Source of the DNA: Pseudomonadota bacterium
Lineage (GTDB): Bacteria > Bdellovibrionota_B > Oligoflexia > Oligoflexales > CAIYRB01
Length of the DNA: 64,000 nt
Reading direction: 5' to 3'
Assembly (NCBI GenBank): GCA_031416315.1
Contig: JANOTL010000094.1
Location: forward strand, 32,001-96,000
Shown here: positions 4,338 to 24,940 of the stretch, piece by piece
How positions within the stretch are numbered: position 1 is the first letter of the stretch
Layout: each line of letters opens with the position of its first letter
The notes under the pieces: generated by a model
The model's database searches: none
The model's input: the letters and a program-made list of their open reading frames with translations, nothing else
Told to the model about the DNA's origin: nothing
Position numbers and translations under genes: made by a program

Positions 4338-4353
4338 TGCGTGAAATGACACT
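4338..4353. promoter_or_regulatory. Island palindromic box (TGCGTGAAATGACACT)
   Basis: Matches recurring TGCGYSA-NN-TSRCGCA; 9 nt upstream of sigma-54 GG at 4363. Confidence 0.65.
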
Positions 4354-4360
4354 GGCCGCC

Positions 4361-4377
4361 CTGGCCTCGTGCTTGCA
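4361..4377 (+). promoter_or_regulatory. Sigma-54 promoter of USP gene
   Basis: CTGGCCTCGTGCTTGCA, GG-N10-GC, 46 nt before ATG 4424. Confidence 0.75.
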
Positions 4378-4423
4378 AACCTGAACTCGATCCATTCCAG
4401 CTCGAGATTGCAAGGAGCTCACC

Positions 4424-5455
4424 ATGTCTTCCCCCTCGCTCAACCCTAAAGGCCTCGCCGTCGTCTGCGTGGCGTTCGACGATGAGACGCCCGCGCTCGT
4501 TGCCAGCGCGCTCGCGCTCGCGCGACGAACCGGCGTCGAGCTTCGGCTCGTGACCGTGCTCGAAAACATCTTCGACGAGACTTGGGTGCTCGATAGCCCA
4601 ATGTACGGCGTCTCGAGCAGTTTCCTCAGGAAGGCCCAGGATGAGACCCGGAATCAACGCAAGGAACAGATGCAGGCGCTCGTCTCGAGCCTGCCGTCGG
4701 ACGTACCGACCAGCTGGGGTATCCTTTCAGGTGACATAGCCCCCGCCGTCGTCGCCGATGCGCGCGCGCACGCCGCGAACTTCATCATGACGGCCGCCAA
4801 TCTCGAGACCTATGGATCGCTGATGCCCAAGGGCTTTTCCGTGGCCCTGCGCCTGATGGCGGAGGCGCCGTTGCCCGTGCTCGTCACCAGCCGCGCTCAC
4901 CCGCTCTGTTTCGACGCGGTAAAGCCGTTCTCGATCCTGTTTGCCGACGACCTGCAGGCGGGGACGGAGGAAGCGGCGCGAAAGGTGTTCGAGCTGGCCA
5001 CCTGCCTAGGGCGCAGCCGCGTTCGCCAGGTGCATGTGCACGGCGATTTTCGTGAAGTGTTGAAAGGAGCATGGCACGATCTGAAAGAGCGTCATCCCGC
5101 GCTTGGCGGCGCTGACGCGTCGCCGGATTCGTTCTTGCGCGCGGAGTACGACGCGCGTCTGACGGCGCTCAAGGCTCGCGGCGGCGCTCAGCGCCAGGCG
5201 GCGTTGGCCGCCGGCGCTACGATCGGTCTCGAGGTGCTCACCGGGAACGTCAACGAGGGTCTGCAGCAAGAGATCGAGGCGAACCCGCCCGACCTCGTCG
5301 TATTCGGACGTCACCAGGCCATGAAGGCGCGGCCGTACCTGATCGGCAGAGTCGGTTTGCGCGCGATGCTCGGAGCTCGGCGCGCGGTCCTCGTCGTACC
5401 GCCGCACGAGCAGCTCTACGCGCCGATGCCGTTTCCGGTGCGCCGGGACGCATAA
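4424..5455 (+). CDS. Tandem universal stress protein (paralogue 1)
   Basis: Two USP-like halves; ADDL, VHVH, DLVVFGRH, VLVVP; AAGGAG RBS. Confidence 0.85.
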   Translation: MSSPSLNPKGLAVVCVAFDDETPALVASALALARRTGVELRLVTVLENIFDETWVLDSPMYGVSSSFLRKAQDETRNQRKEQMQALVSSLPSDVPTSWGILSGDIAPAVVADARAHAANFIMTAANLETYGSLMPKGFSVALRLMAEAPLPVLVTSRAHPLCFDAVKPFSILFADDLQAGTEEAARKVFELATCLGRSRVRQVHVHGDFREVLKGAWHDLKERHPALGGADASPDSFLRAEYDARLTALKARGGAQRQAALAAGATIGLEVLTGNVNEGLQQEIEANPPDLVVFGRHQAMKARPYLIGRVGLRAMLGARRAVLVVPPHEQLYAPMPFPVRRDA

Positions 5456-5481
5456 GGCAGCGGCCCGGCGCACGCCGGGGC

Positions 5482-5949
5482 TCAGATCGCGGTCGCTCCC
5501 GGACGAGCGGCCGTGATCACAGCATAGTGAAAGGGAATCGGCTTCGTCATCGCCGCCCGCTCGTTGCTGCACAGGCACTCGATCAGATCCGACGAGGTGA
5601 CGAGGCCGACGAGGCCGTGCTTGTGGTCGACGATCGGGATCGAGTCGATCTTCATCTCGAGCATCAAGGCGCCGATCTCCGCCAGGGTCGCGCCGGTGTC
5701 TCGCGTCATCGGCTTCGCCGTCATGGCCTCCGCGACCGTCACCGCCTCGATCTCAAGGCCGTCTGCGTCCTTGCCGCGTCGCGCGTGCAAGAGAACGTCT
5801 CGGTCCGAGAGGATCCCGACAAGCAATCCCTCGCTGAGGACCGGCAGATGGCGTACCTGCCATTCGGTCATCAGCGCATAGGCGTCGACGAGGGTGTCTT
5901 CGGGACAGATGCAGATGACGTTACGGGTCATGATGCTGGTGGCTTTCAT
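5482..5949 (-). CDS. CBS-pair protein (paralogue 1)
   Basis: IMTRNV, VRHLPV, GILSDRD, IDSIPIVD...LVGLVTSSD; GAGGAG RBS before ATG 5949. Confidence 0.88.
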   Translation of the reverse strand: MKATSIMTRNVICICPEDTLVDAYALMTEWQVRHLPVLSEGLLVGILSDRDVLLHARRGKDADGLEIEAVTVAEAMTAKPMTRDTGATLAEIGALMLEMKIDSIPIVDHKHGLVGLVTSSDLIECLCSNERAAMTKPIPFHYAVITAARPGATAI

Positions 5950-5984
5950 CTTCCGGCTCCTCTTTGTGTGGACAGTCGAAGGGT

Positions 5985-6001
5985 TGCCAGAAGCGTTCCA
6001 C
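5985..6001 (-). promoter_or_regulatory. Sigma-54 promoter of CBS gene
   Basis: Minus strand GTGGAACGCTTCTGGCA, GG-N10-GC. Confidence 0.6.
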
Positions 6002-6008
6002 GACACCT

Positions 6009-6024
6009 TGCGCGATCTCGCGCA
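6009..6024. promoter_or_regulatory. Island palindromic box (TGCGCGATCTCGCGCA)
   Basis: Perfect palindrome (extends to TTGCGCGA-TC-TCGCGCAA) between divergent sigma-54 promoters, 9 and 19 nt from their GG. Confidence 0.75.
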
Positions 6025-6041: not shown

Positions 6042-6058
6042 ACGGCACGTGATTTGCT
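6042..6058 (+). promoter_or_regulatory. Sigma-54 promoter of GFDDND-1/papain unit
   Basis: ACGGCACGTGATTTGCT, near consensus. Confidence 0.8.
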
Positions 6059-6112: not shown

Positions 6113-6835
6113 ATGATTGCTGCGCGGCTGCTGACCCTGATGCTGGCTTCGACCGGATTCTCCACCGCCCTCGTCGCCGACGAGATCGTCGCCGTCGCCG
6201 CCGAGCGCGTCTTCGTACCGACTGGGTTCGACGACAATGACGACGTTGAGGTCGTGGTGGACGGCGTGTTTCCAGACACCTGCTATCACATCGTCCCCGG
6301 AACCTTCGAGGTCGACGTCGCGACCGGATCGGTGACCCTCTTCCCAAAGGCGCGTCGCTCGGATGCGCTGTGCCTGATGCTGCCGGTGCCCTACACTTAC
6401 GTCTTCAATCTCGGCAAGATGCCGATGGGCCGCTTCCGGGTGAAGACCTGGGACGGCGCTATCACCCGTGAGCTCCCCGTCGCCGAAGCCGCGAGCGGCG
6501 GCCCCGATAACGAGCTGTATGCCGCCATCGACAACGCGACCATCGAACGTCATCCCGACGGCACGATGCGCGTCGTTCTCGAGGGAATGTACACCAACAC
6601 CTGCATGGGCTGGGACCGGACGGAGGTGATCAACGCGAACGCCGAGGTCTTCGAGATCCTCCCGATCGTGAAGATCGCGGACCGTGCCGACTGCCGTAAC
6701 GAGAAGTTCCCGTTCAAAGGCGTCTCGGTCATTCTGCCGAACGTGCCGCCGGGGCGCTTTCTCGCTCACGTACGGGCGATGCACGGTGGTAGCGTCAACC
6801 GCGTGTTCACGGCCGAGCTTCCGACCCGTCGCTGA
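6113..6835 (+). CDS. Secreted two-domain 'GFDDND' protein of unknown function (paralogue 1)
   Basis: Signal peptide; FVPTGFDDNDD, FPDTCY, NTCM, HVRAMHGGSVNR; 4 conserved Cys shared with 3 other copies. Confidence 0.85.
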   Translation: MIAARLLTLMLASTGFSTALVADEIVAVAAERVFVPTGFDDNDDVEVVVDGVFPDTCYHIVPGTFEVDVATGSVTLFPKARRSDALCLMLPVPYTYVFNLGKMPMGRFRVKTWDGAITRELPVAEAASGGPDNELYAAIDNATIERHPDGTMRVVLEGMYTNTCMGWDRTEVINANAEVFEILPIVKIADRADCRNEKFPFKGVSVILPNVPPGRFLAHVRAMHGGSVNRVFTAELPTRR

Positions 6836-6847
6836 GATTGCGAGACT

Positions 6848-7861
6848 ATGACGAACCTGACTCCCCTGACTCCGTTCCCATGGCTCTTGATTTTAGGGCT
6901 CGGCGCGACCGCGACGGCGGTGAGCGCCGAGCCGCTCACGATGCAAACGCTGCGCAATGCGCTCTTGGAGCAAGGCGCCTCGTGGCAGCCAGCCGCGACG
7001 AGCTCGTTCGACCCGGCAGCCTTCGAGCGCTGGACTGGGCTGATTCCCGAAGTGGACGATCTCCCGCCCTTGGCCGCCGACGATGGCGGCGCCGCGGACA
7101 GCCGACTCGTAGGTCCTCGGCGCCTCGCACGCCGCAATCCGGGTGCTCCTGTGGCGCGACCCGCGCTCCCCGCGAGCCTAGATTGGCGCAACGCCGAGGG
7201 GGCCTCCTTCATGCCGCCGGCGACGACGGCCCAAGGAAGCTGCGGCAGCTGCGTGGCCTTTGCCGTACTTTCGACGCTCGAGGCTCGGCTCGGCATTGCA
7301 TGCAACGCGCCTCAGGAGCCGTTCGACTTGTCGCGGCAGTTTCTCTTCTCGTGCGGCGGCGGCTCCTGCCGCCAAGGCTTGCGCCTTTCGGCCGCCGTCG
7401 ACTTCTTGACTCGTTCCGGCGTCCCCGATACCGCCTGCATGCCCTATCGGGAAGAAGACGCGCCATGCGCCGAGGCCTGCGAGGACGTCTCCTCACGTCT
7501 CGTCGAGGGCATCGTTGCCGAGCGTCCGACCTCCGGCATCATCGACGTCGACGCGATCAAGCAAGCGCTTTTGCGCGGTCCGGTCGTCTCCAATATGATT
7601 CTGTACGAGGACCTGGCGCACTACGGCGGCGGCGTCTACCGCCACGTCGCCGGCGATCAGCTCGGCGCGCACGCCGTCGTCCTCGTCGGCTGGAGCGACG
7701 CCGACGCCGCTTGGATCGCCCGCAACAGCTGGGGCGACGGCTGGGGCGAGGGCGGCTACTTCAAGGTCGCGTGGGATGACGCGTCTCTTCCGGGCCGCTA
7801 CACCTGGGCTTTCGACGTGAGTGCGGCGGTTGGCGCAGGAAAGTGCGCGACGAGGCGTTGA
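6848..7861 (+). CDS. Secreted papain-family (C1A) cysteine peptidase
   Basis: LPASLDWR, QGSCGSCVAFA (Gln/Cys), HAVVLVGW (His), NSWG (Asn); signal peptide and short propeptide. Confidence 0.92.
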   Translation: MTNLTPLTPFPWLLILGLGATATAVSAEPLTMQTLRNALLEQGASWQPAATSSFDPAAFERWTGLIPEVDDLPPLAADDGGAADSRLVGPRRLARRNPGAPVARPALPASLDWRNAEGASFMPPATTAQGSCGSCVAFAVLSTLEARLGIACNAPQEPFDLSRQFLFSCGGGSCRQGLRLSAAVDFLTRSGVPDTACMPYREEDAPCAEACEDVSSRLVEGIVAERPTSGIIDVDAIKQALLRGPVVSNMILYEDLAHYGGGVYRHVAGDQLGAHAVVLVGWSDADAAWIARNSWGDGWGEGGYFKVAWDDASLPGRYTWAFDVSAAVGAGKCATRR

Positions 7862-7876: not shown

Positions 7877-7893
7877 ATGGCGCGAAAGTTGCT
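7877..7893 (+). promoter_or_regulatory. Sigma-54 promoter of GFDDND-2
   Basis: ATGGCGCGAAAGTTGCT; half-perfect box TGCGCGACGAGGCGTT at 7844-7859, 19 nt upstream of GG. Confidence 0.75.
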
Positions 7894-7932: not shown

Positions 7933-8655
7933 ATGCTCAAGCTCATCTCGCTCTCCGCTCTTGGAATCGCCGCGGTCGCGATTCCCGCCCTCGCCGATAT
8001 GGAGCCCCGCGGAATGCCGGTCCTCGTGGACGTCAAGAGCGTTTACGTCCCGAACGGCTTCGACGACAACGACGAGGTTCAGCTGATGGTCGAGGGCACC
8101 TTGCCCAACACCTGCTACCGCATCTCGAAGACCGAGTCGACCTACGACGACGCGACCAAGACCGTGACCATTAAGCAGTGGGCGCGGAAATTCCGCGCGA
8201 GCTGCCTCGAGATCGCCGTCCCGTTCTCGCTCGAGGTCGACCTCGGCCAGCTGCCCTACGGTGAATTCACCGTGGCGGCCCGCGGCGCGGCGCCGGAGAA
8301 ACTCGTCGTCGCCGAAGCGAGCTCCGCCGGCCCCGATGAATACCTCTACGCTCCGATCGAGAGCATCACCATCTCTGGCGGTGACGGGGCGACACGCCGG
8401 GGCACGCTCGAGGGCCGTTTCGTGAGCTCTTGTATGCGTCTCAAAGAGGTTCGCGTCATCGACTCGGGCAAGACCGTGGAAGTGCTCCCGATCGCCGAGA
8501 TGGCCGAGGGCGAAGATTGCGTCAGCGGCGAGACGCCCTTTACGCAAGACTTCGACCTCCCGGCTGAATTGGCGCCCGGCCGTCACTTGCTGCACGTGCG
8601 CAGCCTGAACGGCAAGGCGTTGAATCAGATGTTCGTGATTGAATCGGTGCCGTGA
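7933..8655 (+). CDS. Secreted two-domain 'GFDDND' protein (paralogue 2)
   Basis: GGAGG RBS, signal peptide, YVPNGFDDNDE, LPNTCY, SSCM, GRHLLHVRSLNG. Confidence 0.88.
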   Translation: MLKLISLSALGIAAVAIPALADMEPRGMPVLVDVKSVYVPNGFDDNDEVQLMVEGTLPNTCYRISKTESTYDDATKTVTIKQWARKFRASCLEIAVPFSLEVDLGQLPYGEFTVAARGAAPEKLVVAEASSAGPDEYLYAPIESITISGGDGATRRGTLEGRFVSSCMRLKEVRVIDSGKTVEVLPIAEMAEGEDCVSGETPFTQDFDLPAELAPGRHLLHVRSLNGKALNQMFVIESVP

Positions 8656-8717: not shown

Positions 8718-9701
8718 TCATAAGCTCGGCACTACCAGGACCGGCCGCTTGAAAGCGAGCATCGAGCGTATCGGCAACCGCCCGAACGCAAACGGCTGGT
8801 GGTGCAGCGCCCGGTGGCGTCCGAAGACGATGACGTCCGGCGCGAGGCTCGTCACGACGTTCGTGAGCTCCGGGCGCACGCCGCCGGCGGTCACCTCGCT
8901 GGTGTAGCGGCCGCCGCCGGCCTCGATGTACTCGCGGTCGTCGCTGAACCGGGCCTCGAGCTTCGCGATCTGCTCGCGGTGCACGGCGTCGAAGACGGCG
9001 CGCGATTCGTCGCCGTCCAAGGCGACGTGCGCGGAGGCGGCGACGTTCTTGAGCGCGACCGCGAGCGTTTCCTGGTTGAAGGCGCTGACGTGGACGTGAT
9101 GCACCCAGGCTTGCCCGAGCCCGTCCGCAAGCGCGGCCGCGTACTCTACTGCCGTAATCGCTTGGTCGGTCAGGTCGTCGGCCACGAGGATTCGCATGCC
9201 CGTGCCGACCTCCGGCGCATGCGTGCCAGGGTCGACGGCGAGCACCGGAATCGGCGAGCCCGCCAGCAAAGAGACGGCGGTCGAGAGTCCTGCGAAGGGT
9301 CCACGACCCGCATTCCCGTCGACGGCGACCACGAGCAACATCGCTCCGAGGCCGGCCGCCTCGGTCCCGAGCGTCGCCGCGACCGGACCGACCGTGACCG
9401 AGCTCGTGACCTCCAGGCCTTTCGGCAAAGACTGCGCGATCTCGGACAAGCGCTCCATCGCCACCGATCTCGCGGAGCTTTCGACCGCAGGGAATGCGTC
9501 CCATAGCGGGGACGGGGTGGTCTGCGAGAAGGCGGGCACGCCGCTCGCCCAGGCGTCGACGACGTGCATCAGCGCGAGCCGCTTGCCGAGCTTCTGCGCG
9601 AGTCCCCCGGCAATTTTGACCAGCGCTTCCGTGTGGCGGTCGAAGCCGACGGCGACGGCGATCGTCGAATGGGACGAAAAATAGGGCACGTGCTTAGTCA
9701 A
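8718..9701 (-). CDS. Tandem universal stress protein (paralogue 2)
   Basis: AVGFD, LMHVV, VADDL, HVHV, DVIVFGRH, PVLVVP; TTG start after GAGGAG. Confidence 0.85.
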   Translation of the reverse strand: MTKHVPYFSSHSTIAVAVGFDRHTEALVKIAGGLAQKLGKRLALMHVVDAWASGVPAFSQTTPSPLWDAFPAVESSARSVAMERLSEIAQSLPKGLEVTSSVTVGPVAATLGTEAAGLGAMLLVVAVDGNAGRGPFAGLSTAVSLLAGSPIPVLAVDPGTHAPEVGTGMRILVADDLTDQAITAVEYAAALADGLGQAWVHHVHVSAFNQETLAVALKNVAASAHVALDGDESRAVFDAVHREQIAKLEARFSDDREYIEAGGGRYTSEVTAGGVRPELTNVVTSLAPDVIVFGRHRALHHQPFAFGRLPIRSMLAFKRPVLVVPSL

Positions 9702-10008
9702 GGCGGCGCTCCTCTTCAAGAAGGGAATCAGGCATGAGCAGGTTAAGCTCGCTCACGCGCTCGGCGCGCATCGCGTCGATGAGCTCTTTGGTGTGCCGGG
9801 AGATCCGTTGGGGATCTTTGGCGACGTCGCAGAGTCGCGACCCTTCCGGGTAATCCCAGCCTTCGCCTTTCAGCGCCGCCAAGATGCGTCGGTACTCTCT
9901 TTCCAGGCGCGGGTGTTGCGCCAGATCGGGCATGGCGCCGACGACTTTGAGCGCCATCGCGAGTCTGCTGCACGGGAATTCGCCCATGCATGTATCGCAG
10001 TGAGACAC
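9694..10008 (-). CDS. Small Cys-containing hypothetical protein
   Basis: AGGAGG RBS, GTG start, HCDTC...C and LCD; overlaps the USP start. Confidence 0.7.
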   Translation of the reverse strand: MSHCDTCMGEFPCSRLAMALKVVGAMPDLAQHPRLEREYRRILAALKGEGWDYPEGSRLCDVAKDPQRISRHTKELIDAMRAERVSELNLLMPDSLLEEERRLD

Positions 10009-10050: not shown

Positions 10051-10067
10051 AGCAATATTTGGGCCGC
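10051..10067 (-). promoter_or_regulatory. Sigma-54 promoter of small-protein/USP operon
   Basis: Minus strand GCGGCCCAAATATTGCT, GG-N10-GC. Confidence 0.7.
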
Positions 10068-12072: not shown

Positions 12073-12089
12073 TGCAGTGAACGTGCCAG
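12073..12089 (-). promoter_or_regulatory. Sigma-54 promoter of cytochrome c-TPR/GFDDND-3 operon
   Basis: Minus strand CTGGCACGTTCACTGCA. Confidence 0.8.
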
Positions 12090-17093: not shown

Positions 17094-17536
17094 TCCTCGC
17101 GCATAGCGGACGGTCGGTCGAGATCCTCCTCGTCGAGGACAACCCCGGTGACGTGCGCCTCGCGGTCGAAGCGCTCAAAGAGGGGAACGTCCGTAGCAGC
17201 CTTTCCGTCGCCCAGGACGGCGTCGAGGCCTTGCGCTTCCTGCGGCGCGAAGGCCCTTACGCCGCCTCTCCCAAGCCCGACGTCATTCTGCTCGACCTCA
17301 ACCTGCCGAAGAAGGGCGGGCGCGAGGTGCTGGCGGAGATCAAGGCCGACGAGGCCTTGCGACGCATTCCGGTCATCGTGCTCACGACTTCGAACGCGGA
17401 GGAGGACATCCTCCGCAGCTACGACCTTCACGCAAACTGCTACATCACGAAGCCGGTCGACATGGATCATTTCATCACGGTCGTGAAGTCGATCGACGCG
17501 TTCTGGTTCAACGTCGTTACGATGCCGACGGCGTGA
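17090..17536 (+). CDS. Single-domain response regulator (Rcp1-like)
   Basis: ILLVEDNPGD, LLDLNLP, LTTS, ANCYITKP; GTG overlapping the kinase stop. Confidence 0.92.
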   Translation: MILAHSGRSVEILLVEDNPGDVRLAVEALKEGNVRSSLSVAQDGVEALRFLRREGPYAASPKPDVILLDLNLPKKGGREVLAEIKADEALRRIPVIVLTTSNAEEDILRSYDLHANCYITKPVDMDHFITVVKSIDAFWFNVVTMPTA

Positions 17537-18753: not shown

Positions 18754-18770
18754 GTGGCACGATCATTGCT
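18754..18770 (+). promoter_or_regulatory. Sigma-54 promoter of CBS-transporter operon
   Basis: GTGGCACGATCATTGCT, consensus. Confidence 0.85.
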
Positions 18771-18811: not shown

Positions 18812-19282
18812 ATGCGCGCCGAAGAAAAGATGACCCGCAAACTGCATCTGACCAGTCCCAAGGAGTCGGCAGGGGTCGCCTTCGGACGCATGCTGGAGCT
18901 GGCCGTCCGGCACTTGCCCGTCGTCGACGACGGGAAGCTCGTCGGCATCGTGTCGGACCGAGATCTCCTCCTTTATTGCCGGGCGGGCCAAACCTACGAC
19001 TTTCCCGTCGGCTTGGACGTCGACGGCGTGATGACCAGGAAGGTCGAGACCGCGAGCTGCAAGGCGACCCTCGCGGAGGTCGCCAAGAAGATGAACGACC
19101 GCAAGATCGACGCCCTGCCCATCGTCGACGGCGAAGGCAAGCTCGTCGGCCTGATCACCGCCTTCGATCTCCTGGAGGTGCTCGCCGCCGGCGGTGCCGA
19201 TCCCATGGGCGTCGACCGGAGCGATCAATTCCTCGAGCGTTATCGCTGGGACTTCCCGACGAGTTTTCCGGGCATGCTGTGA
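18812..19282 (+). CDS. CBS-pair protein (paralogue 3)
   Basis: GAGGAG RBS; VRHLPVV, GIVSDRD, IDALPIVD...LVGLITAFD. Confidence 0.88.
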   Translation: MRAEEKMTRKLHLTSPKESAGVAFGRMLELAVRHLPVVDDGKLVGIVSDRDLLLYCRAGQTYDFPVGLDVDGVMTRKVETASCKATLAEVAKKMNDRKIDALPIVDGEGKLVGLITAFDLLEVLAAGGADPMGVDRSDQFLERYRWDFPTSFPGML

Positions 19283-19289: not shown

Positions 19290-20390
19290 TTGAGCCCTTT
19301 GGCTCTCCTTCTGACGATCGTCAGCGTCGCCCTGCTCTTCGCTTTGGTCACCGAGAACGGGACTAGCGCCGCGATCGCCGAGAAGCTCTTGTCGCGCCTC
19401 GGCAGTCGCATGCATCTCGCACCGCTGGCCTTGTTCGTCATCACCGCCGTGATCTCGGCAGCAGGCGCCGGCAACATCACGGCGACCCTGCTGATCGCCC
19501 CGCTGGCGATGCGGTTTGCGGCGCGGATCGGCCTCAGCCCGTTCTTGACGACGCTTTTGGTCATTGGCGGCGCGAATGCCGGTTCGCTGTCCCCCGTATC
19601 GATGACCGGAATCTTGGCGCGCGAGCTGCTCTCGGGCCCTCAATGGAGCGAAGCCGCGTTGACGTCGCTCTCGTGGCGCATGTTTTTGACGGTTTTCGGG
19701 AGCGTGACCGCCCTGCAGGCGATCGGCTTCCTGATCTTCGGCGGCTATGCCTGGTTGCGAGCCCACGCCCGGAAGGGCGTCGCCAAGACCGGCGAGCCGC
19801 GTCTTTTGAATCGTGCGCAGCTCGTGACGACGCTCGTCGTCGCGATGTTCTCGGTTCTCGTGCTCGCCACGCCGCTGTCGCCGGGACTGATCGCGGCCGT
19901 CGCGGCGATCGTCCTGATCTCGTCGCGCCTCGCCTCGCTCCAAAAAGCTCTACGCCTCGTGCCTTGGAAGTCGGTCGCTTTGATCGCCGTCATGCTCCAG
20001 CTCGCCCACTTCGCCGAGCGTTTCGGCTGGGTCGCTTTGGCCGCCTCGCAGCTGTCCCAGATGGGGACCCCCGCTTCGATGCCGATCTGGATCGCTTTGA
20101 TCGCGGCCGCGCTTTCTACGGTGTCCAGCTCGTCGGGCGTCGTGTTGCCGCTCCTTCTGCCGATGATCCCAGCCTTCGCCGCGGCCGGCGCCGACCCCGG
20201 CGCGACGGCGGTGGCGGTGGTCCTTGGCTCGCATCTCGTGGATTGCAGCCCCTTGTCGAGCCTGGGCGCGATGTGCTTGGGAGCGGTGCATGGAGAAAGC
20301 CGGAAGCAGGAACGTAGGCTTTTCGTCGCGCTCTTGGCTTGGGGCCTGGCGATGGTGCCGGTCTCGGGTTTGATCGCCGCGATGCTCTGA
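19290..20390 (+). CDS. SLC13/CitMHS-like anion (dicarboxylate/citrate) transporter
   Basis: Many TM segments; GANAGSLSPVS and SSSSGVVLP...SPLSSLGA motifs; start approximate (TTG). Confidence 0.75.
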   Translation: MSPLALLLTIVSVALLFALVTENGTSAAIAEKLLSRLGSRMHLAPLALFVITAVISAAGAGNITATLLIAPLAMRFAARIGLSPFLTTLLVIGGANAGSLSPVSMTGILARELLSGPQWSEAALTSLSWRMFLTVFGSVTALQAIGFLIFGGYAWLRAHARKGVAKTGEPRLLNRAQLVTTLVVAMFSVLVLATPLSPGLIAAVAAIVLISSRLASLQKALRLVPWKSVALIAVMLQLAHFAERFGWVALAASQLSQMGTPASMPIWIALIAAALSTVSSSSGVVLPLLLPMIPAFAAAGADPGATAVAVVLGSHLVDCSPLSSLGAMCLGAVHGESRKQERRLFVALLAWGLAMVPVSGLIAAML

Positions 20391-20420: not shown

Positions 20421-21173
20421 TCAGTCGGCGAAGTCGAACAACCGATTGACCGATTGTCCGCCCAGCACCCGCACGTGAGCCAAGTATTCCGTGCGCTCAC
20501 GCGCATCCGTCACGAGCTTCGTCACTTCGAACTTCTTCGACCGGCTCTGATCCCGACAATCTTCTTCCCTTTCGAAGATCCTCGCGATCGGCTGCACGAC
20601 GATGACGTTGCCGGGCGTGACTTGCTCGCGAACCTCGACGATTTTCATGCAGCCGATGAGCATATGCGGGTAAGTCCCCTGTAGGATGAGCGTGTGGTTG
20701 CCGTCGGGGCCGGTCGAGAAGGCGACGTTGTCGACGGGACCGTAGAGGAAGTCGTCCGGGTTGCGCGAGCTGGCCTCCACGATCGACAAGGGGCGCGTCG
20801 GCGTCCCGGGACGGTCGACGACCTCGACCTGATACTCTCCGACCGGCAGGGGCCCGAGCTTCACCGACTCGAGGAAGGGCACCATGATCTGCGCGCAGAA
20901 GACGCCGGCGTAATGCCAGGCCTTCACCACGACGGTGATCTTGTTGGTGTCGAGATCGACGGACGCGGTCGCGGGCCCCATCTTGTAGCAGGTGCTCGGG
21001 AAGTGGCCGTGCACGATCACTTCCGCATTGTCGTTGTCGTCGAAGCCGAGCGGCACGAAGGCGCGCTCGACCGGCGCTGTGACGAGGACTGGTCCGCTTG
21101 CGGCTGCGCTCGCCAATCCCGTGATCGCGAGGGCGGAGAACGCCGCGGAGAACGTCGTAATGAGCTTGAGCAT
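20421..21173 (-). CDS. Secreted two-domain 'GFDDND' protein (paralogue 4)
   Basis: Signal peptide, FVPLGFDDNDN, FPSTCY, IGCM, HVRVLGGQSVNR. Confidence 0.88.
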   Translation of the reverse strand: MLKLITTFSAAFSALAITGLASAAASGPVLVTAPVERAFVPLGFDDNDNAEVIVHGHFPSTCYKMGPATASVDLDTNKITVVVKAWHYAGVFCAQIMVPFLESVKLGPLPVGEYQVEVVDRPGTPTRPLSIVEASSRNPDDFLYGPVDNVAFSTGPDGNHTLILQGTYPHMLIGCMKIVEVREQVTPGNVIVVQPIARIFEREEDCRDQSRSKKFEVTKLVTDARERTEYLAHVRVLGGQSVNRLFDFAD

Positions 21174-21229: not shown

Positions 21230-21246
21230 TGCTAGAACCGTACCAA
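21230..21246 (-). promoter_or_regulatory. Sigma-54 promoter of GFDDND-4
   Basis: Minus strand TTGGTACGGTTCTAGCA, GG-N10-GC. Confidence 0.62.
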
Positions 21247-21279: not shown

Positions 21280-22848
21280 TCATTCCAGAATCGCGAGATC
21301 ACCCAGCGCCGACACGGCCGCCAGCGCGTCGATCGAGTCCGCGGACCGCGGCAACCGCAGCTCGCGCAGATTCTCGAAACCCGCGAGGGGCGCGAGGTCC
21401 GCGGTCGCCACGCCCGATAGGTCGACGTACTGAAGGTTCGTGAACTCGGCGATCGCCGAGAGGTCGGCGATGGCGGTTCGTGAGAGATCGAGCGACCGCG
21501 CTCTCTGCAGCGCATCATTGGCTGAATGGCAGCTACACGCTGTGCCAAAACACGCAGCGCGGCGCAGGATGCCCATTTCTGCTGCAGCCAGAGCGTCTCC
21601 CGTGCTTTGCGCCGCGAGACAACGTTGGACGAAGGCGTTGCGCCGATCGAGCCGCCAGGTCGGAGCCTGCAGCGTCGGACCGGTGACGCGGACTCCCGAC
21701 GCAGTCAGCAGCTCGATGACGTCCTGGTTCGCAAGCGCATTCCATCCGACACGCAGAAATCGCAACGCCGTGAGCCCGCGAAGCGGGGTCACATCGGTGA
21801 GGGCGTTGTCGTCGAGGTTGAGACGCTCGACCGAGCGCAACGCCGCAAGGGGCCGCGCATCAATCAGGAGCGAGCGTGACAGATCGACTTCACGCGCCGC
21901 CCCCGCCCACGCCTGCAACTCCTCGCAGGTGACGTCGCTCTCGAAACGCCGACGCCCGTCGGCGCGCACGAACGCGGTCCGAAGCGCTGCGACCGTGCGG
22001 CGCGCTCCATCATCGCCATTCTCGGCGAGGCAAAGGTCGCTCGCGTCGGCAAGGGCCTCGACTTGCTCGCCGCAGCCGGCGCCGGAGCGCCAACCGGTCT
22101 CCGCCTCGAGCCAACATGCGTACGGCGCGACCAAGGTCCAGATTCCGGGGTAATCGGCGTTGCCACACGGGGCGGGACCTCGAGAAGTGATCCCCAGCAG
22201 GCGAAAACCGCCGTCCGCTGTGCGTCCGAACGCGGGGCCGCCGCTATCGCCATCGCATGCATCGCCCGCGTCGTCGCCAAGCGCGATCTCGCGAGCGCTG
22301 CGGAACTTCAAGCGCGCCTCGCCTTCGAACTTGCGTCCCAAAGCCCGCGTTTCGTTGTCATGGACGCCGAAGCCGACGATCCGCAAGCTCGAGCCTGGTA
22401 GGAGCGCGGCGTCGACCTCGAAGACCGTGGTCGCCACGGGCACGAGCTCGACGTCGTTCTGGGCCTCGGCCAAGATCAGATAGGCGAGGTCACTCGAGCC
22501 CCAAACGCCGCTCGGATAGGCGGGATGCCGCGCGCCGCGTACGACCGCGAGCGCATCGCCGAAGCGGCCGCCGTCCTCGCCGAGGCCTCGGTGCACCGAA
22601 ATCGTGCCGAGATCCGCTCCGGACGGCAGGCAATGTGCCGCGGTCAGCACCACGGTCGGCGCGATCAAGACCCCGGTGCACGTGAGGTTGCCATGCGAGG
22701 TCAAGGCAACGGTGTTCGCCCAGTGCCCGTCCGCGACCGGCGCCGCGTTGGGGCCGACGACGCTCGGATCGGAGAAAGACATCGCGCGACCGCAGCCGAG
22801 GAGTGCCGTTAACGCCAGCAGGACGAGAATCGGGATGTGATTGGCCAT
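21280..22848 (-). CDS. Lipoprotein: trypsin-family (S1) protease + leucine-rich repeats
   Basis: Lipobox LLGC; LTAAHC, SDLA, GDSGGP; internalin-like LRRs (LNLDDNALTDVTPL). Confidence 0.88.
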   Translation of the reverse strand: MANHIPILVLLALTALLGCGRAMSFSDPSVVGPNAAPVADGHWANTVALTSHGNLTCTGVLIAPTVVLTAAHCLPSGADLGTISVHRGLGEDGGRFGDALAVVRGARHPAYPSGVWGSSDLAYLILAEAQNDVELVPVATTVFEVDAALLPGSSLRIVGFGVHDNETRALGRKFEGEARLKFRSAREIALGDDAGDACDGDSGGPAFGRTADGGFRLLGITSRGPAPCGNADYPGIWTLVAPYACWLEAETGWRSGAGCGEQVEALADASDLCLAENGDDGARRTVAALRTAFVRADGRRRFESDVTCEELQAWAGAAREVDLSRSLLIDARPLAALRSVERLNLDDNALTDVTPLRGLTALRFLRVGWNALANQDVIELLTASGVRVTGPTLQAPTWRLDRRNAFVQRCLAAQSTGDALAAAEMGILRRAACFGTACSCHSANDALQRARSLDLSRTAIADLSAIAEFTNLQYVDLSGVATADLAPLAGFENLRELRLPRSADSIDALAAVSALGDLAILE

Positions 22849-22878
22849 CCAGCCAGTTTACCCGCACGCGCTCCTTAA

Positions 22879-22933
22879 TATCAATAGATTTCAACAGCTT
22901 GCGCGAAAACGCGCGGGTGCGTGATACGACGCA
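22879..22933. promoter_or_regulatory. IHF-like sites plus two tandem island boxes
   Basis: TATCAATAGATTT / TTTCAACAGCTTG; TGCGCGAAAACGCGCG (22900-22915) and TGCGTGATACGACGCA (22918-22933, 10 nt from GG). Confidence 0.68.
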
Positions 22934-22941
22934 GGCGAAAG

Positions 22942-22958
22942 GCGGTACGGCCCTTGCT
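22942..22958 (+). promoter_or_regulatory. Sigma-54 promoter of cytochrome c-TPR paralogue 2
   Basis: GCGGTACGGCCCTTGCT. Confidence 0.72.
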
Positions 22959-22993
22959 CAGGAAGAGGGACGATCCCACGTGAAAGGCTCTCC

Positions 22994-24127
22994 ATGACTC
23001 TCCTGCGCTCGGCCCTGGCCAAGAGCCTCGGCCTTCTCTGTCTCGTCACGACCGAAGCCTTGGCCTTCGAGCCACGCTGGCGCAAAGACATGCGCGAGAT
23101 GGCGGAAGTCTTCTCCGAGGCGCTGCCGATCGTCATAAGCGACGCGGCCTATGAGAAGCCTTCGCTGCAGAAAAAATTGGTGAAGGACCTCCGCAAGCTC
23201 TCGAAGACGGCGAAGCGGGTCGAAAGGGCGTTGAGCGAGCAGATCGACGACCCGGTCATCCCCCACGTGACCGTGAAAATGTCGCGAAGCTTCGACCGCG
23301 CCGCGACGCTGCTCGAGAGGGGCGAGGCCGGCACGGCTCGCGGCCTCGTACGCAGCGCGACGGGGTACTGCATCAGCTGTCATACGCGCCTGCCCGGCGC
23401 GGCCGCTTCGGTCGCGGTCGAGCCGCGCGCTCCCAAGGGATTCGTGCTCGGAGCCGCCGACACCGCCGAGTTCTACGCCGCGACGCGCCAGTTCGAGAAG
23501 GCGATCGTCTCGTACGAGGCCGTCATGAAGGACCGCTGGCTTGCCGCGACGTTTCCCCACCGTTGGGCGCTCGCCGCGCAAAAGATGCTGGCGATCGTGG
23601 TGCGCGTCCGCGATGAGCCTCGCCTGGCGCTCGAGATCCTATCGGCCATTCGCGACGAGAAGGCGACGCCCGCGGCGCTTTACCGCGACGCCCTGATCTG
23701 GCGCGGCTCGGTGGAGGAGTGGCTGGCGGAGCCGAGCGCGAAACCGCGCGACCTCGCGCGCGCCAACGAGCTCTACGCCGAGGGCGAGGCCCAGGTCTTG
23801 AAGACCGGGTCGCAGGCAGCGGGATTGATCCCTTTCCTGCGCGCGTCCGCGATCCTTCACGAGCTGCTGCGCGAGCGGCGCAACGACCAGGAATTCGCGG
23901 CGACCCTCGATCTCGCGGGCAAAACGGCCGAATGGCTCGCGCCGATCGTGCTCTGGACCTTGAACGAGTCTTACTTCGAGGCCTGCATTCGGGTCGTCCC
24001 GCACACGGCGCGCGCCGGAATTTGTCTCGAGCACTTCAAGGATGCGCACGTGACGTCGATCGAGCGGGACGAGGCGCGGCTGAGCGAGCTCGAGAGGCTC
24101 GCTTCCGAGGTGGAGTCCGGGAAGTAG
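22994..24127 (+). CDS. Exported monoheme cytochrome c with TPR-like C-terminus (paralogue 2)
   Basis: Signal peptide, CISCHT, ATRQFEKA and YFEACIR segments parallel 10874-12034. Confidence 0.8.
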   Translation: MTLLRSALAKSLGLLCLVTTEALAFEPRWRKDMREMAEVFSEALPIVISDAAYEKPSLQKKLVKDLRKLSKTAKRVERALSEQIDDPVIPHVTVKMSRSFDRAATLLERGEAGTARGLVRSATGYCISCHTRLPGAAASVAVEPRAPKGFVLGAADTAEFYAATRQFEKAIVSYEAVMKDRWLAATFPHRWALAAQKMLAIVVRVRDEPRLALEILSAIRDEKATPAALYRDALIWRGSVEEWLAEPSAKPRDLARANELYAEGEAQVLKTGSQAAGLIPFLRASAILHELLRERRNDQEFAATLDLAGKTAEWLAPIVLWTLNESYFEACIRVVPHTARAGICLEHFKDAHVTSIERDEARLSELERLASEVESGK

Positions 24128-24130
24128 CCA

Positions 24131-24940
24131 ATGAAGCGGCCCAATCCTCCGAGGAGACCCTGCATGATGCGCCCCTTTGCGACCATGATTCTTTGCGTTG
24201 CCGCGACGAGCGCGTCAGCCAACGAGCTCGTGCTTCTTCCCGCGTTTCAGGACGGCCCGCTTGGCGCGTGTCCCGTTTTCGACCGCGCGACGAGCGCCGA
24301 GGCGGAGCTGCGGATCGCGAGCACGGTGCCGCGCACGACGACACTCGCGCTCGGCGCGGCGACGCCTTTGGGACGAGACGTCTCGTTCTCCGCGTCGGCG
24401 CAGACGCTCCAGGACGCGCGGGGGGCCGGTCGGCGCGCCGACGTGAAGGCAGGTCCTCTCGTCTGGTTCGGAGCGCTCGCGGTCGGCGGCGCGGTCGGTG
24501 CTGTTTTTCTCGCCGAGACGCCACGGCCTGCGCCGATGGCGACGGCCTTTGCCGGCTGGCGAGGCAAGGACCTGACGGCCGCGGTGCAACATCGGCTGTA
24601 CGATAACGACGGCAAAGCGTCGCCGCCTCCCCCGACCACAGCGCTACGGGGTCGCTATGCCTTGCTGCAAGAGTTGGATCTGGGATTCGATCTTTCGACG
24701 ACCGATGCGCTCTGGTCCGTCGCCGGCGGCGGCGTCTACAAGACGACGGTCGGCGTCGATCTGGCGACGTCCTACCACTTTGCCGAGCCCAAAGCGGGCG
24801 CTTCGCGGCTAGGCGTCGGCGTCGTCGTCCCCGCAGCGGCGTTCAGGTTGCAGTTGGATCTCGGATACCAGACCAGCAAGCCCCCAGGTTCCGACGCCAA
24901 GGCCTGGGACATCGCTTCGAGCTTGGTCGTACCCCTCTGA
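24131..24940 (+). CDS. Exported hypothetical protein, possibly outer-membrane beta-barrel
   Basis: Signal peptide; alternating hydrophobic beta-strand pattern in C-terminal half; start may be a later Met. Confidence 0.55.
   Translation: MKRPNPPRRPCMMRPFATMILCVAATSASANELVLLPAFQDGPLGACPVFDRATSAEAELRIASTVPRTTTLALGAATPLGRDVSFSASAQTLQDARGAGRRADVKAGPLVWFGALAVGGAVGAVFLAETPRPAPMATAFAGWRGKDLTAAVQHRLYDNDGKASPPPPTTALRGRYALLQELDLGFDLSTTDALWSVAGGGVYKTTVGVDLATSYHFAEPKAGASRLGVGVVVPAAAFRLQLDLGYQTSKPPGSDAKAWDIASSLVVPL

Follow-up and report, generated by a model that had tools for sequence, protein, structure and literature searches.

A dense sigma-54 promoter cluster as the likely core of a low-oxygen response in an uncultured Oligoflexia-type bacterium

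Positions 4338..24940 of the window (the whole 64,000-nt stretch analysed, from contig JANOTL010000094.1, here C94; bare coordinates are window positions) hold the densest sigma-54 promoter cluster in the genome of an uncultured Oligoflexia-type bacterium. This island of 20.6 kb probably forms the core of a broader low-oxygen response. With somewhat better than even confidence, we favour a sigma-54 regulon core that the resident NtrC-type activator would switch on when oxygen is limiting; the activator's predicted binding site is a 16-bp palindrome. A sequence-only reading of this DNA had described the island as wired on sigma-54, and this held: 20 of the 22 island genes belong to transcription units with a sigma-54 site at the head, and the genome carries a single rpoN. 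Pfam searches and translations also bore out the gene content it had given, namely three tandem universal stress proteins (USPs), three CBS-pair proteins, four GFDDND proteins, two CxxCH proteins and a complete REC-AAA+-HTH_8 activator encoded after a kinase-like gene (Table 1).

Table 1. Features of the island and its surroundings (offset, palindrome first base to -12 C)
Feature	Position	Strand	Remarks
Hybrid kinase, 3' part (REC-HisKA-HATPase-REC)	7..963	+	gene starts before the window, at C94:31428
HDOD/HD-domain protein	1011..1955	+	same operon as hybrid kinase 7..963
Soluble PAS histidine kinase 1	1967..3052	+	FixL-like PAS, haem-ligand histidine aligned
Acetyl-CoA hydrolase/CoA-transferase family gene	3049..4308	-	start 4308 set by homology
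Degenerate palindrome TGCGTGAAATGACACT	4338..4353		13.1 bits; offset 38 to 4376 promoter
Sigma-54 promoter	4362..4376	+	14.8 bits
Candidate sigma-54 promoter	4410..4424	-	15.0 bits; overlaps opposite-strand USP1 ribosome site
Tandem USP 1	4424..5455	+	Pfam/translation
CBS-pair protein 1	5482..5949	-	Pfam/translation
Sigma-54-like site, weak	5986..6000	-	7.3 bits; palindrome at canonical offset 38
Perfect palindrome TGCGCGATCTCGCGCA	6009..6024		common to divergent promoters 5986- (offset 38) and 6057+ (offset 48)
Sigma-54 promoter	6043..6057	+	14.0 bits
Secreted GFDDND protein 1	6113..6835	+	two beta-sandwich domains, 4 conserved Cys
Secreted papain-family (C1) protease	6848..7861	+	operon of GFDDND protein 1
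Sigma-54 promoter	7878..7892	+	14.8 bits; TGCGCGA 34 nt upstream of TGG (half palindrome, about offset 48)
GFDDND protein 2	7933..8655	+	paralogue
Tandem USP 2	8718..9701	-	Pfam/translation
104-aa cytoplasmic protein, N-terminal CxxC-x5-C	9694..10008	-	first gene of USP2 operon; behind sigma-54 site in relatives too
Sigma-54 promoter	10052..10066	-	11.4 bits
Two palindromes	10075-10090, 10098-10113		offsets 38 and 61
GFDDND protein 3	10124..10852	-	downstream of CxxCH1
Secreted monohaem CxxCH protein 1	10874..12034	-	coding gene
Sigma-54 site internal to CxxCH1/GFDDND3 unit	11013	-	13.5 bits
Sigma-54 promoter	12074..12088	-	14.0 bits
Palindrome TGCGCCAACTGACGCA	12097..12112		exact midpoint of two back-to-back sigma-54 promoters; offset 38 to both
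Sigma-54 promoter	12121..12135	+	17.5 bits
CBS-pair protein 2	12165..12560	+	Pfam/translation
NtrC-type enhancer-binding protein (REC, sigma-54 AAA+, HTH_8)	12568..14118	-	loop GAFTDA
Sensor-less kinase-like protein	14115..14789	-	Asp in place of phospho-accepting His; co-transcribed with activator
Sigma-54 promoter, kinase-like/activator operon	14826..14840	-	10.2 bits; upstream IHF-consensus-like AT-rich stretch; strong palindrome absent
Sigma-54 promoter	14948..14962	+	13.9 bits; upstream palindrome-like sites weak (9.1-9.4 bits)
Tandem USP 3	14996..15979	+	Pfam/translation
Soluble PAS histidine kinase 2	15996..17093	+	FixL-like PAS, haem-ligand histidine aligned
Single receiver-domain protein	17090..17536	+	coding gene
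Hybrid kinase, N-terminal receiver, C-terminal kinase core	17541..18719	-	NmpS-like architecture; upstream sigma-54 site absent
Sigma-54 promoter	18755..18769	+	17.6 bits, perfect consensus; clear palindrome absent
CBS-pair protein 3	18812..19282	+	Pfam
CitMHS/MatC-like membrane transporter	19299..20390	+	operon of CBS-pair protein 3
GFDDND protein 4	20421..21173	-	paralogue
Sigma-54 promoter	21231..21245	-	13.0 bits; clear palindrome absent
Secreted trypsin-like protease with leucine-rich repeats	21280..22848	-	sigma-54 site absent; upstream, the island's only sigma-70-like consensus match
Two palindromes	22900-22915, 22918-22933		offsets 57 and 39
Sigma-54 promoter	22943..22957	+	16.3 bits
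Secreted monohaem CxxCH protein 2	22994..24127	+	coding gene
Secreted protein, no known family	24131..24940	+	operon of CxxCH protein 2
Weak palindrome and sigma-54 promoter	35852..35891 (promoter 35877-35891)	+	palindrome 9.1 bits, offset 39; promoter 16.3 bits
Hemerythrin gene	35963-36433	+	behind 35877-35891 promoter
160-aa unknown gene	36430-36912	+	behind 35877-35891 promoter, after hemerythrin gene

Promoters were scored with a home-made weight matrix, trained on the same genome minus the island (87 seeds, 280 sites after iteration) from TGGCAC-N5-TTGC as a seed consensus; scored sites are named by the position of the -12 C, and genes and start codons come from our own codon-bias caller. 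All twelve GG-N10-GC motifs of the sequence-only reading were recovered at its coordinates and strands, 29–63 nt upstream of start codons with a GGAG-type, Shine-Dalgarno-like stretch in front of them. Eleven scored at least 10 bits and one was weak (7.3 bits); a 13th site that it had missed, 4410- (15.0 bits), lies 101 nt before the start of the acetyl-CoA transferase gene. Genome-wide, 300 sites of at least 10 bits lie 15–100 nt before starts, whereas the frequency within coding DNA predicts ~41; with a threshold of 13 bits, 188 sites compare with ~6 expected. The island's density is far above this background, with 12 promoter-positioned sites scoring 10 bits or more versus 0.81 expected (Poisson P 8e-11; binomial P 3e-11) and 5 in the second-densest 20.6-kb stretch. 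The three motifs previously spotted elsewhere in the window correspond to 35891+ (16.3 bits), 45696- (19.7 bits) and a weak 62779+ (8.0 bits).

Sigma-54 wiring alone does not prove one regulon, since the genome encodes ~18 enhancer-binding proteins (bEBPs), and USP and GFDDND paralogues elsewhere in it have sigma-54 sites without the palindrome described here. At eight island promoters, a 16-bp palindrome, TGCGYG-N4-CRCGCA (six clear copies, two degenerate), lies 8 bp upstream of the -24 element, at an offset of 37–39 nt or one helical turn more. The pattern was spotted by eye and then tested, post hoc, on the same genome. TGCGCGA occurs within 120 nt upstream of 6 of 12 island promoters versus 9 of 251 elsewhere; TGCG-N8-CGCA is found only 29 times in all intergenic DNA, and the five copies that abut sigma-54 promoters are all on C94. 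Across the 300 promoters, the offsets of.GCG-N8-CGC. peak at 37–39 (10 cases, nine on C94), with 0–3 cases at other offsets. Because the palindrome is common to eight promoters at a fixed offset, a single regulator is likely behind them. The idea of a single regulon is borne out only in part, as a clear palindrome is absent (none, or only a 9-bit match) at five other promoters: 4410-, 14826-, which is that of the activator's own operon, 14962+, 18769+ and 21231-.

The proximal palindrome could also be the site of a factor other than the activator, because it is centred ~31 nt upstream of the -12 C, whereas known enhancers usually lie 70–150 bp upstream. Within the island, no DNA-binding protein other than the activator was found. 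The activator's loop reads GAFTDA, not GAFTGA, which we count against the activator reading; orthologues with 59–69% identity have GAFTDA in six of six cases and lie in a syntenic module (REC<-PAS-kinase / kinase-like->activator->CxxCH).

The 20-kb limits drawn earlier proved too narrow: the palindrome-marked set covers at least C94:21.9–68 kb, with weaker candidates on other contigs. On C94, palindrome and sigma-54 site also pair before nrfHA, a CBS/cytochrome c'-like operon, a hybrid-kinase/HDOD/PAS-kinase operon (16.0 bits, offset 39, for the hybrid-kinase gene starting at C94:31428) and a hemerythrin gene. The cbb3 oxidase operon (ccoNO-P-G and a P-type ATPase) has two distal palindromes (offsets 115 and 146), separated from the promoter by an AT-rich stretch; by its sequence, this is a classical enhancer layout. 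On other contigs, weaker pairs stand before another two tandem USPs, a Zn alcohol dehydrogenase, a GFDDND paralogue and a multicopper NirK-like protein that has a cytochrome c domain. Of the nine tandem USP genes in the genome, eight have a sigma-54 site before the gene itself or before its operon.

A hypoxia reading is likely, since these pairs mark nrfHA, cbb3, cytochrome c'-like and hemerythrin genes and FixL-like haem-PAS domains occur in two kinases; the hypoxia idea of the earlier reading was thus strengthened by genes outside its interval, and its mention of dormancy and envelope stress drew no direct support. Both PAS kinases match the haem-PAS domains of FixL and DosP (E 1e-15 to 1e-9), and the proximal His aligns in each. 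No CRP/FNR-type HTH scored above the Pfam cut-off in the 93%-complete genome. In FixL, Arg206 and Arg220 contact bound O2; these positions are not conserved in the PAS-domain alignment, and what the domains sense may thus be NO, CO or redox state instead of O2.

In the mechanism that we propose for an oxygen-limitation regulon, the two soluble kinases would sense O2 (or NO/CO) and, via receiver domains, control the REC-kinase hybrid 17541-18719, which may phosphorylate the activator when oxygen falls, by analogy with NmpU, NmpS and NmpR of Myxococcus (PMC11841059). The phosphorylation route is guesswork, because the activator-adjacent kinase lacks the phospho-acceptor His. Once phosphorylated, the activator would assemble at the palindrome, where it would remodel the sigma-54 holoenzyme bound alongside; the palindromes at 6009 and 12097 would each serve two divergent promoters. 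Predicted outputs are high-affinity respiration (cbb3), nitrite reduction (NrfAH, NirK-like protein), CoA-transferase and alcohol-dehydrogenase metabolism, O2/NO-binding proteins, and nucleotide-sensing USP and CBS proteins. A periplasmic output would comprise the papain-family protease, the two-domain beta-sandwich GFDDND proteins and monohaem helical proteins, of which CxxCH protein 1 is modelled as a four-helix bundle whose helix 4 ends with CxxCH, with helical repeats after it.

Conservation in relatives (10 loci from nine relatives, 38–62% GC) agrees with sigma-54 control: 28 of 38 orthologues have a site scoring 11 bits or more in the 220 nt upstream (GFDDND 12/15, USP 5/9, CBS 2/4, CxxCH 4/5, small Cys protein 2/2, kinase-like/activator operon 3/3), and those lacking one are mostly second genes of operons. 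The palindrome recurs at offsets 38–40 and 49 at 6 of 63 promoters in these loci, all in two same-family genomes, and the relatives back it independently only in part.

The likeness to DosR that had been suggested holds by analogy; neither a NarL-type regulator nor a close sequence relation was found in that comparison. Nor can the system be called undescribed, as had been proposed, since Myxococcus xanthus NmpRSTU, reported in 2025 as the NmpR oxygen-utilisation regulon (PMC11841059), is of the same kind. NmpR is an NtrC-like regulator that needs sigma-54, is induced by hypoxia, receives its input from a haem kinase via a REC-HisKA-CA hybrid, and has CBS, USP, P-type ATPase plus cbb3 and hemN-hemerythrin genes in its regulon. 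The island shares with Nmp an NtrC-type activator, sigma-54 and CBS, USP, cbb3 and hemerythrin genes; unlike Nmp, it would combine a different sensor and operator with a predicted promoter-adjacent enhancer, a histidine-less kinase and a periplasmic arm.

Genes of the source draft genome (6.36 Mb in 226 contigs, 93% complete, ~65% GC) were predicted with our own codon-bias caller, which returned 5,475 genes and 90% coding sequence. rpoN is present in single copy genome-wide (PF04552, 223.8 bits), together with ~18 full-length sigma-54 activators (bEBPs), one of which lies inside the 22-gene island at window positions 4338..24940. To score sigma-54 promoters we used a matrix trained on the promoter-positioned sites of this genome with the island left out, which reproduced the classical TGGCAC-N5-TTGCW; sites are named below by the position of the -12 C and the strand. 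Genome-wide, 300 sites of ≥10 bits lie 15–100 nt before a start codon compared with ~41 expected from the rate in coding DNA, and at ≥13 bits the same positional class comprises 188 sites versus ~6 expected. All 12 GG-N10-GC motifs that the sequence-only reading had listed in the island were recovered, 11 of them at 10.2–17.6 bits and one, 5986-, at just 7.3 bits. A thirteenth site, 4410- (15.0 bits), absent from that list, is located upstream of an acetyl-CoA transferase gene whose start was set at 4308 using homology. Twelve of the 13 sites score ≥10 bits, compared with 0.81 expected over 20.6 kb, so that the claimed excess over background is real; in a window scan, the second densest stretch of the genome holds five. 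Chance as the origin of the motifs was rejected: 69 matches were counted against 50.2 ± 7.4 after shuffling, none of 100 shuffles reached 69, and the coding-DNA background rate, the window scan and conservation in relatives contradict it as well. The sigma-70 consensus, which may not suit this phylum, matched once in the island against 1.7 expected. Twenty of the 22 genes belong to units headed by a sigma-54 site, the exceptions being a REC-kinase hybrid and a trypsin-LRR protease. We consider the predicted sigma-54 wiring of the island to be firm, as solid as sequence alone can make it.

Three further observations concern individual sites. Site 4410- (4410-4424) shares DNA with the Shine-Dalgarno stretch and the start codon that the first tandem USP gene (USP1, 4424, +) has on the opposite strand; the overlap is either a chance by-product of that sequence or a source of mutual interference between the two units. 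A 13.5-bit site at 11013-11027 (-), inside the 3' part of the first CxxCH gene (CxxCH1) and 160 nt before the third GFDDND gene (GFDDND3), may be an internal promoter. The top-scoring site of the window, at 45696-45710 (-) with 19.7 bits, stands 72 nt before a gene for a PLD-like protein with two PLDc domains, and TGCGCGA occurs 102 nt upstream of this promoter's TGG (45696-).

Pfam matches and translations bore out the gene inventory of the sequence-only reading, comprising three tandem USPs, three CBS-pair proteins, four GFDDND and two CxxCH paralogues, both families secreted, and the activator (see the table). A mobile or foreign origin of the island was rejected, as GC is even at 0.64–0.675 over the window and the module is syntenic in relatives. 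The only ARAGORN match, a 91-nt tRNA-Arg at 21-111 (+), falls within a hybrid kinase gene and is probably false, and no Rfam family reached its gathering score within the window. Among sequencing records, no RNA run was listed as containing the stretch, and the one DNA record covering it in full may be its source. Between the island and a hemerythrin operon lie genes for a di-haem cytochrome c peroxidase and a large GAF-PAS-GAF hybrid kinase, both with no promoter-positioned sigma-54 site of ≥10 bits.

Features of the island and of the wider regulon. Plain numbers are window positions; numbers with the prefix C94: are positions in contig JANOTL010000094.1 (C94), of which the window covers 32001-96000.
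Feature	Position	Strand	Remarks
USP1, tandem USP	4424-5455	+	Pfam and translation
USP2, tandem USP	8718-9701		Pfam and translation
USP3, tandem USP	14996-15979		Pfam and translation
CBS1, CBS pair	5482-5949		Pfam and translation
CBS2, CBS pair	12165-12560		Pfam and translation
CBS3, CBS pair	18812-19282		Pfam and translation
GFDDND1 to GFDDND4, secreted	6113, 7933, 10124, 20421		invariant PxGFDxND, four conserved cysteines
CxxCH1, secreted	10874-12034		invariant CxxCH
CxxCH2, secreted	22994-24127		invariant CxxCH
104-aa cytoplasmic protein	9694-10008	-	N-terminal CxxC-x5-C
Activator, REC-AAA+-HTH_8	12568-14118	-	downstream of kinase-like gene
Kinase-like protein	14115-14789	-	
PAS kinases, soluble	1967-3052; 15996-17093		
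Lone receiver domain	17090-17536		148 aa
REC-kinase hybrid	17541-18719		
Di-haem cytochrome c peroxidase	28302-29294	-	
GAF-PAS-GAF hybrid kinase	32753-35800	+	
Hemerythrin gene	promoter 35891	+	palindrome and sigma-54 pairing, downstream of island
PLD-like protein	44352-45623		
nrfH-nrfA	promoter C94:21954	-	palindrome and sigma-54 pairing
ccoNO, ccoP, ccoG, P-type ATPase nearby	promoter C94:22122	+	palindrome and sigma-54 pairing
Unknown gene, CBS-pair gene, cytochrome c'-like gene	promoter C94:31282	-	palindrome and sigma-54 pairing
Hybrid kinase, HDOD protein, PAS kinase (window start)	promoter C94:31344	+	palindrome and sigma-54 pairing

The most over-represented 7-mer in the intergenic DNA of the island is TGCGCGA (6 copies versus 0.31 expected), which occurs no more than 120 nt upstream at 6 of the 12 island promoters compared with 9 of 251 elsewhere. 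It constitutes one half of a 16-bp palindrome, TGCGYG-N4-CRCGCA, whose core, TGCG-N8-CGCA, has just 29 copies in the whole intergenic DNA of the genome; five of these adjoin sigma-54 promoters, and all five are on C94. When the offset of the -12 C from the first base of.GCG-N8-CGC. was measured over the 300 promoters, a sharp peak appeared at 37–39 nt (10 promoters, nine of them on C94, compared with 0–3 at other offsets), which puts the end of the palindrome 8 bp before the TGG. The palindrome starting at 12097 is exactly midway between back-to-back promoters, with an offset of 38 to each, and that starting at 6009 is common to 5986- (offset 38) and 6057+ (offset 48, one extra helical turn). 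Promoters 10052- and 22957+ have a second site further upstream, at 23 or 18 bp, paired palindromes starting 18, 23 or 31 bp apart, while degenerate palindromes precede 4376+ and 7892+ in the same register. A symmetrised palindrome matrix built from ten sites gave 26 intergenic matches of ≥13 bits genome-wide, nine of which lie within C94:20-70 kb; since it was trained on C94 sites, scores on C94 are circular and those of off-contig matches are not. This putative promoter-adjacent operator, sometimes serving both directions, is the most unusual feature of the system.

The sequence-only reading had confined the regulon to about 20 kb. The island itself stands, but the pairing of palindrome and sigma-54 site also occurs outside these limits, both up- and downstream. 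The cco promoter has two palindromes, with offsets of 115 and 146 nt, and an AT-rich stretch separates them from the promoter; as a predicted arrangement, this is the textbook enhancer layout. Off the contig, weaker palindrome matches lie 39–100 nt from sigma-54 sites and precede two further tandem USPs (one followed by a PAS protein, the other by a Zn alcohol dehydrogenase), a GFDDND paralogue, a collagen-repeat protein, an OsmC/DUF302 pair and a multicopper NirK-like protein that includes a cytochrome c domain. Of the nine tandem USP genes, eight are preceded, by themselves or as part of an operon, by a sigma-54 site, and the ninth has a 15.2-bit site ~490 nt upstream; five of eight GFDDND paralogues have a site of their own of ≥13 bits. 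The genome has no USP genes other than these nine tandem ones, which are confined to three contigs, including C95 (2.3-9.9 kb and 32.6-34.7 kb) and C24 (2.6-5.8 kb). Since C95 carries four tandem USPs and a GFDDND paralogue, it resembles a further, smaller cluster of the island's kind.

Both soluble PAS kinases have the haem-PAS domains of FixL and DosP as the best PDB matches for their PAS part (FixL at E 1e-15 to 1e-12). The proximal haem-ligand histidine aligns with that of FixL in both, and haem binding is predicted; in the same alignment, the columns of the FixL arginines that touch bound O2 differ. The REC-kinase hybrid has an N-terminal receiver (REC, residues 11-124), an H-box-like SHHEIRN and a C-terminal kinase core (HATPase, 261-369), and a second hybrid kinase begins at C94:31428. 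The kinase-like protein aligns to the FixL kinase core with an Asp at the phospho-acceptor position (AIADNVKNP versus ALAHELNQP in FixL) that is kept in relatives (ADRVNNP, ADRVRNP). Its ATP-binding boxes are intact and its gene is apparently co-transcribed with that of the activator, of which the protein may be an ATP-dependent modulator; alternatively, it may be a pseudokinase or a phosphatase.

The activator combines REC, Sigma54_activat (PF00158, 223 bits) and HTH_8 domains; NCBIfam yielded sub-threshold matches only, to NtrC/AtoC/NtrX. In its residues ELFGYEKGAFTDARERK, the sigma-54-contacting loop reads GAFTDA instead of GAFTGA, as it does in 6/6 activator orthologues. Elsewhere in the genome, one other bEBP has GAFTDA and one GSFTDA, and activators beside CxxCH genes in other phyla have GAFTGA or GSFTGA.

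Two beta-sandwich domains make up the GFDDND model (pLDDT 90.4). It has no Foldseek match at E≤0.001, and its best VIA-align hits (Z 7.0) are generic beta-sandwich domains without functional information; likewise, the family profile found no match by sequence in the PDB and the local Pfam copy gave none. A language-model feature search (Atlas) placed GFDDND beside clusters with 96–100% PF27154 (YB1M_beta) members at scores of 0.93–0.94, and our literature search found no paper on YB1M/PF27154. The CxxCH model (AF2, pLDDT 78.5) shows a four-helix bundle (helices 28-48, 60-81, 86-107 and 111-130, with C125xxC128H129 at the C-terminal end of helix 4), after which come helical repeats. Profile searches weakly matched cytochrome b562, small soluble cytochrome c and cytochrome c' (E 0.02–0.3), which would fit a class II (four-helix-bundle) cytochrome as the N-terminal domain; Foldseek gave no match at E≤0.001, the weak rows being TPR or other helical repeats. 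Because of these weak matches of both kinds, the label 'cytochrome c-TPR' in the sequence-only reading is reasonable but unproven. A contig search with CxxCH1 alone found no loci, and a profile from a 4-sequence alignment found 36, none from Myxococcus xanthus. CxxCH and GFDDND genes are neighbours in eight of these 36 (L026, L027, L032-L036, L042), and a CoA-transferase gene often accompanies such neighbours. As a guess, this periplasmic arm might serve redox or ligand handling linked to a respiratory switch. The gene for the 104-aa cytoplasmic protein, which has no family match, always opens the USP2-type operon; two same-family relatives have this gene behind a sigma-54 site with a palindrome at offset 38.

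The GFDDND family occurs in 30 of the 41 genomes searched, the source genome included. Promoter conservation was assessed in ten loci from nine relatives (38–62% GC), counting sites of ≥11 bits within 220 nt upstream. A conserved site precedes 28 of 38 orthologues: GFDDND 12/15, USP 5/9, CBS 2/4, CxxCH 4/5, the small Cys protein 2/2 and the kinase-like/activator operon 3/3. Orthologues with no site are mostly second genes in operons. The palindrome was found at offsets 38–40 or 49 in 6 of 63 promoters of the relatives' loci, all from two same-family genomes. Beyond the Oligoflexales, the CxxCH gene mostly has no directly upstream sigma-54 site, and overall 8 of 34 CxxCH loci have one of ≥10 bits. 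Synteny, which the sequence-only reading had proposed as a check, is evident: the block REC<-PAS-kinase / kinase-like->activator->CxxCH is kept in three further loci, and the remaining island families cluster around it. The named relatives with the module are MAGs of Pseudobacteriovorax or Oligoflexales.

Judging by the statistics of the operator together with the cargo of genes, the haem-PAS sensors and a Myxococcus precedent, our best reading is that the island and its outlying promoters probably form a single low-oxygen regulon driven by the resident activator. A bolder version, which is possible but which we advance only tentatively, is that the activator occupies a fixed operator centred ~18 bp upstream of the -24 GG and acts with no DNA looping, that a single dimer site fires two back-to-back sigma-54 promoters, and that this arrangement runs the whole low-oxygen lifestyle switch of the Oligoflexia, including every USP of the genome and a new periplasmic haem/beta-sandwich module, replacing the FNR/FixK logic of other Gram-negatives.

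The same wiring might instead respond to nitrite, to nitric oxide or nitrosative stress, or to a redox/energy deficit, with the oxygen genes riding along, which we regard as unlikely. NrfHA and the NirK-like, cytochrome c'-like and hemerythrin proteins are typical nitrite/NO-handling or NO-binding proteins, and the arginines by which FixL contacts O2 are not kept in the alignment. Moreover, in the portion of the Desulfovibrio study available, nitrite induces nrfHA in a sigma-54-dependent manner through NrfS-NrfR (PMC5701242), and adenine nucleotides are described as the usual ligands of USP and CBS domains in the available part of the M. xanthus study (PMC11841059). Nevertheless, O2 is the signal first suggested by the cbb3 oxidase with its Cu-ATPase and by the FixL/DosP-like haem-PAS kinases, hypoxia induces the closest system described so far, and NorR-, NsrR- or HcpR-type regulators were not seen in the island.

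It also seems improbable to us that real sigma-54 promoters here answer to two or more bEBPs or signals, with the palindrome set as one module and the rest under other activators. Five of the 13 island promoters (4410-, 14826-, 14962+, 18769+ and 21231-) have no palindrome or just a 9-bit copy, the ~18 bEBPs of the genome are accompanied by ~260 genes (5%) with a promoter-positioned site of ≥10 bits, and USP and GFDDND paralogues off the contig have sigma-54 sites with no palindrome. However, the palindrome-free promoters serve the same families (USP3, CBS3, GFDDND4) as well as the module's own signalling genes, and the gene set travels together in relatives. Furthermore, weak palindrome-like sites (9.1–9.4 bits) and half sites are present between 14826- and 14962+, a spacer that also contains an AT-rich stretch matching the IHF consensus.

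We hold it to be quite unlikely that the palindrome is the operator of some other protein (a repressor, an anti-activator target or an architectural factor) that gates the promoters while the enhancers lie elsewhere. Its centre is so close to the -24 GG that it abuts the holoenzyme, at a distance atypical for bEBP sites, and when read 5-6-5, as TGCGT-N6-ACGCA, it has the geometry of CRP/FNR-type sites, which centre near -41.5. An FNR/CRP-type operator was nonetheless rejected, as no HTH of that type (PF13545) exceeds the cut-off genome-wide, three weak matches reaching 23–26 bits, whereas 14 of 14 control genomes have one over the Pfam cut-off. Besides the activator, no other DNA-binding gene was found in the island, the cco promoter carries the palindrome twice at classical enhancer distance, and the palindrome-bearing divergent spacers, of 130 and 163 bp, are too short for other upstream sites. 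The GCGCA/TGCGC half-site is, in addition, shared with the NmpR site of M. xanthus as given in the available part of its description (PMC11841059). Finally, an envelope-stress or predation-related secretion programme with accessory USP/CBS genes is very improbable: signal peptides occur in 9 of 22 island products, a papain-like and a trypsin-like protease among them, but neither an envelope-stress sensor nor sigma-E or Psp genes came to light in the island, a sigma-54 site is absent from the trypsin-LRR gene and the co-regulated genes outside the interval are respiratory.

Taken as a single low-oxygen regulon, the system provides a nearly complete and testable wiring diagram, drawn solely from DNA sequence, for an uncultured sediment bacterium of a little-studied class. 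The diagram spans sensor kinases, relay, activator, operator, promoters and ~40 target genes, with falling oxygen as its theme. The 8-bp gap between operator and -24 element, together with one operator for two divergent promoters, would offer a compact test of how near an enhancer-binding protein can stand to the holoenzyme. Oxygen limitation would also give a physiological context to the GFDDND/YB1M and monohaem helical CxxCH families and to the histidine-less kinase paralogue.

Literature searches found nothing on sigma-54 with Oligoflexia, cbb3 or microaerobic, and nothing on the subject of Bdellovibrio RpoN/sigma-54 among the matches listed. The DosR/DosS/DosT system of Mycobacterium tuberculosis employs a NarL/LuxR-type regulator, sigma-70-type promoters and haem-GAF kinases. 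The DosR likeness drawn by the sequence-only reading survives as an analogy, both being haem kinase-controlled hypoxia programmes rich in USP-domain proteins with a CBS-pair protein, but not as a close sequence relation: the regulator here is a bEBP acting with sigma-54, and the kinases carry haem-PAS domains. A search of PDB sequences with USP3 gave none at E≤1e-3, and among 37 CBS matches no entry was titled as the mycobacterial protein. In the FixL-FixJ-FixK cascade of rhizobia, a haem-PAS kinase with a proximal histidine exerts low-oxygen control over the cbb3 oxidase; the predicted sensor and its cbb3 target are alike here, but a sigma-54 activator forms the output where rhizobia have FixJ and then the CRP/FNR-type FixK. 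NrfS-NrfR, in the portion of its description available, is a dedicated nitrite-responsive system with very few targets (PMC5701242), whereas nrfHA is here one of many operons.

The system had been put forward as a candidate undescribed one, but one of the same kind, NmpRSTU, is on record in M. xanthus. According to the available part of that study (McAllister et al. 2025, PMC11841059), the REC-HisKA-CA hybrid NmpS is under the control of the haem (protoglobin) kinase NmpU and phosphorylates the NtrC-like NmpR as oxygen falls, and NmpT, with two receiver domains, is thought to be a phosphate sink. NmpR binds GCGCA-N5-TGCGC, with two sites 14–15 bp apart and a sigma-54 site required, and activates 7 promoters comprising 23 genes: a CBS protein at the head of a separate operon, a USP, a P-type ATPase with cbb3 oxidase, hemN-hemerythrin, nmpUTS and pilR, with one target shown to be hypoxia-induced (PMC11841059).

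Compared with Nmp as described there, the predicted system likewise has a soluble haem kinase on top, a REC-kinase hybrid in mid-chain, a receiver-only protein alongside and a sigma-54-dependent, NtrC-like response regulator as output. Its predicted regulon also includes CBS-pair and USP proteins, a P-type ATPase with cbb3, hemerythrin and its own signalling genes, and its operator is made from GCGCA/TGCGC half-sites, often paired; neither hemN nor pilR turned up in the regions examined. The parts differ. The sensor is FixL-like haem-PAS rather than protoglobin, for which no match (PF11563) was found in the 93%-complete genome, the receiver protein has one receiver domain instead of two, and the activator is co-transcribed with a kinase paralogue that lacks the His. 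The half-sites of the operator face inward, unlike those of the NmpR-type site, of which none was seen by eye in nine island intergenic spacers, the nearest such element being GCGCA-N8-TGCG at 14903-14919; the proximal site keeps a constant 8-bp distance to the -24 element and is common to back-to-back promoters. The regulon is larger, with at least 12 promoters on the contig having a proximal or distal site versus 7, and adds nrfHA, CoA-transferase, tandem rather than single USPs and the periplasmic arm. What is new relative to the available account of Nmp is thus the sensor and the operator, and the histidine-less kinase and two uncharacterised periplasmic families raise further questions. 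The present system would work like Nmp, with the same logic, much shared cargo and different parts. It would extend the use of an NtrC-type activator instead of FNR/FixK for cbb3, USP and CBS genes from Myxococcota to Bdellovibrionota. Since Nmp-like logic recurs there with a different sensor and operator, these comparisons suggest that the sigma-54 route to hypoxia adaptation is widespread but overlooked.
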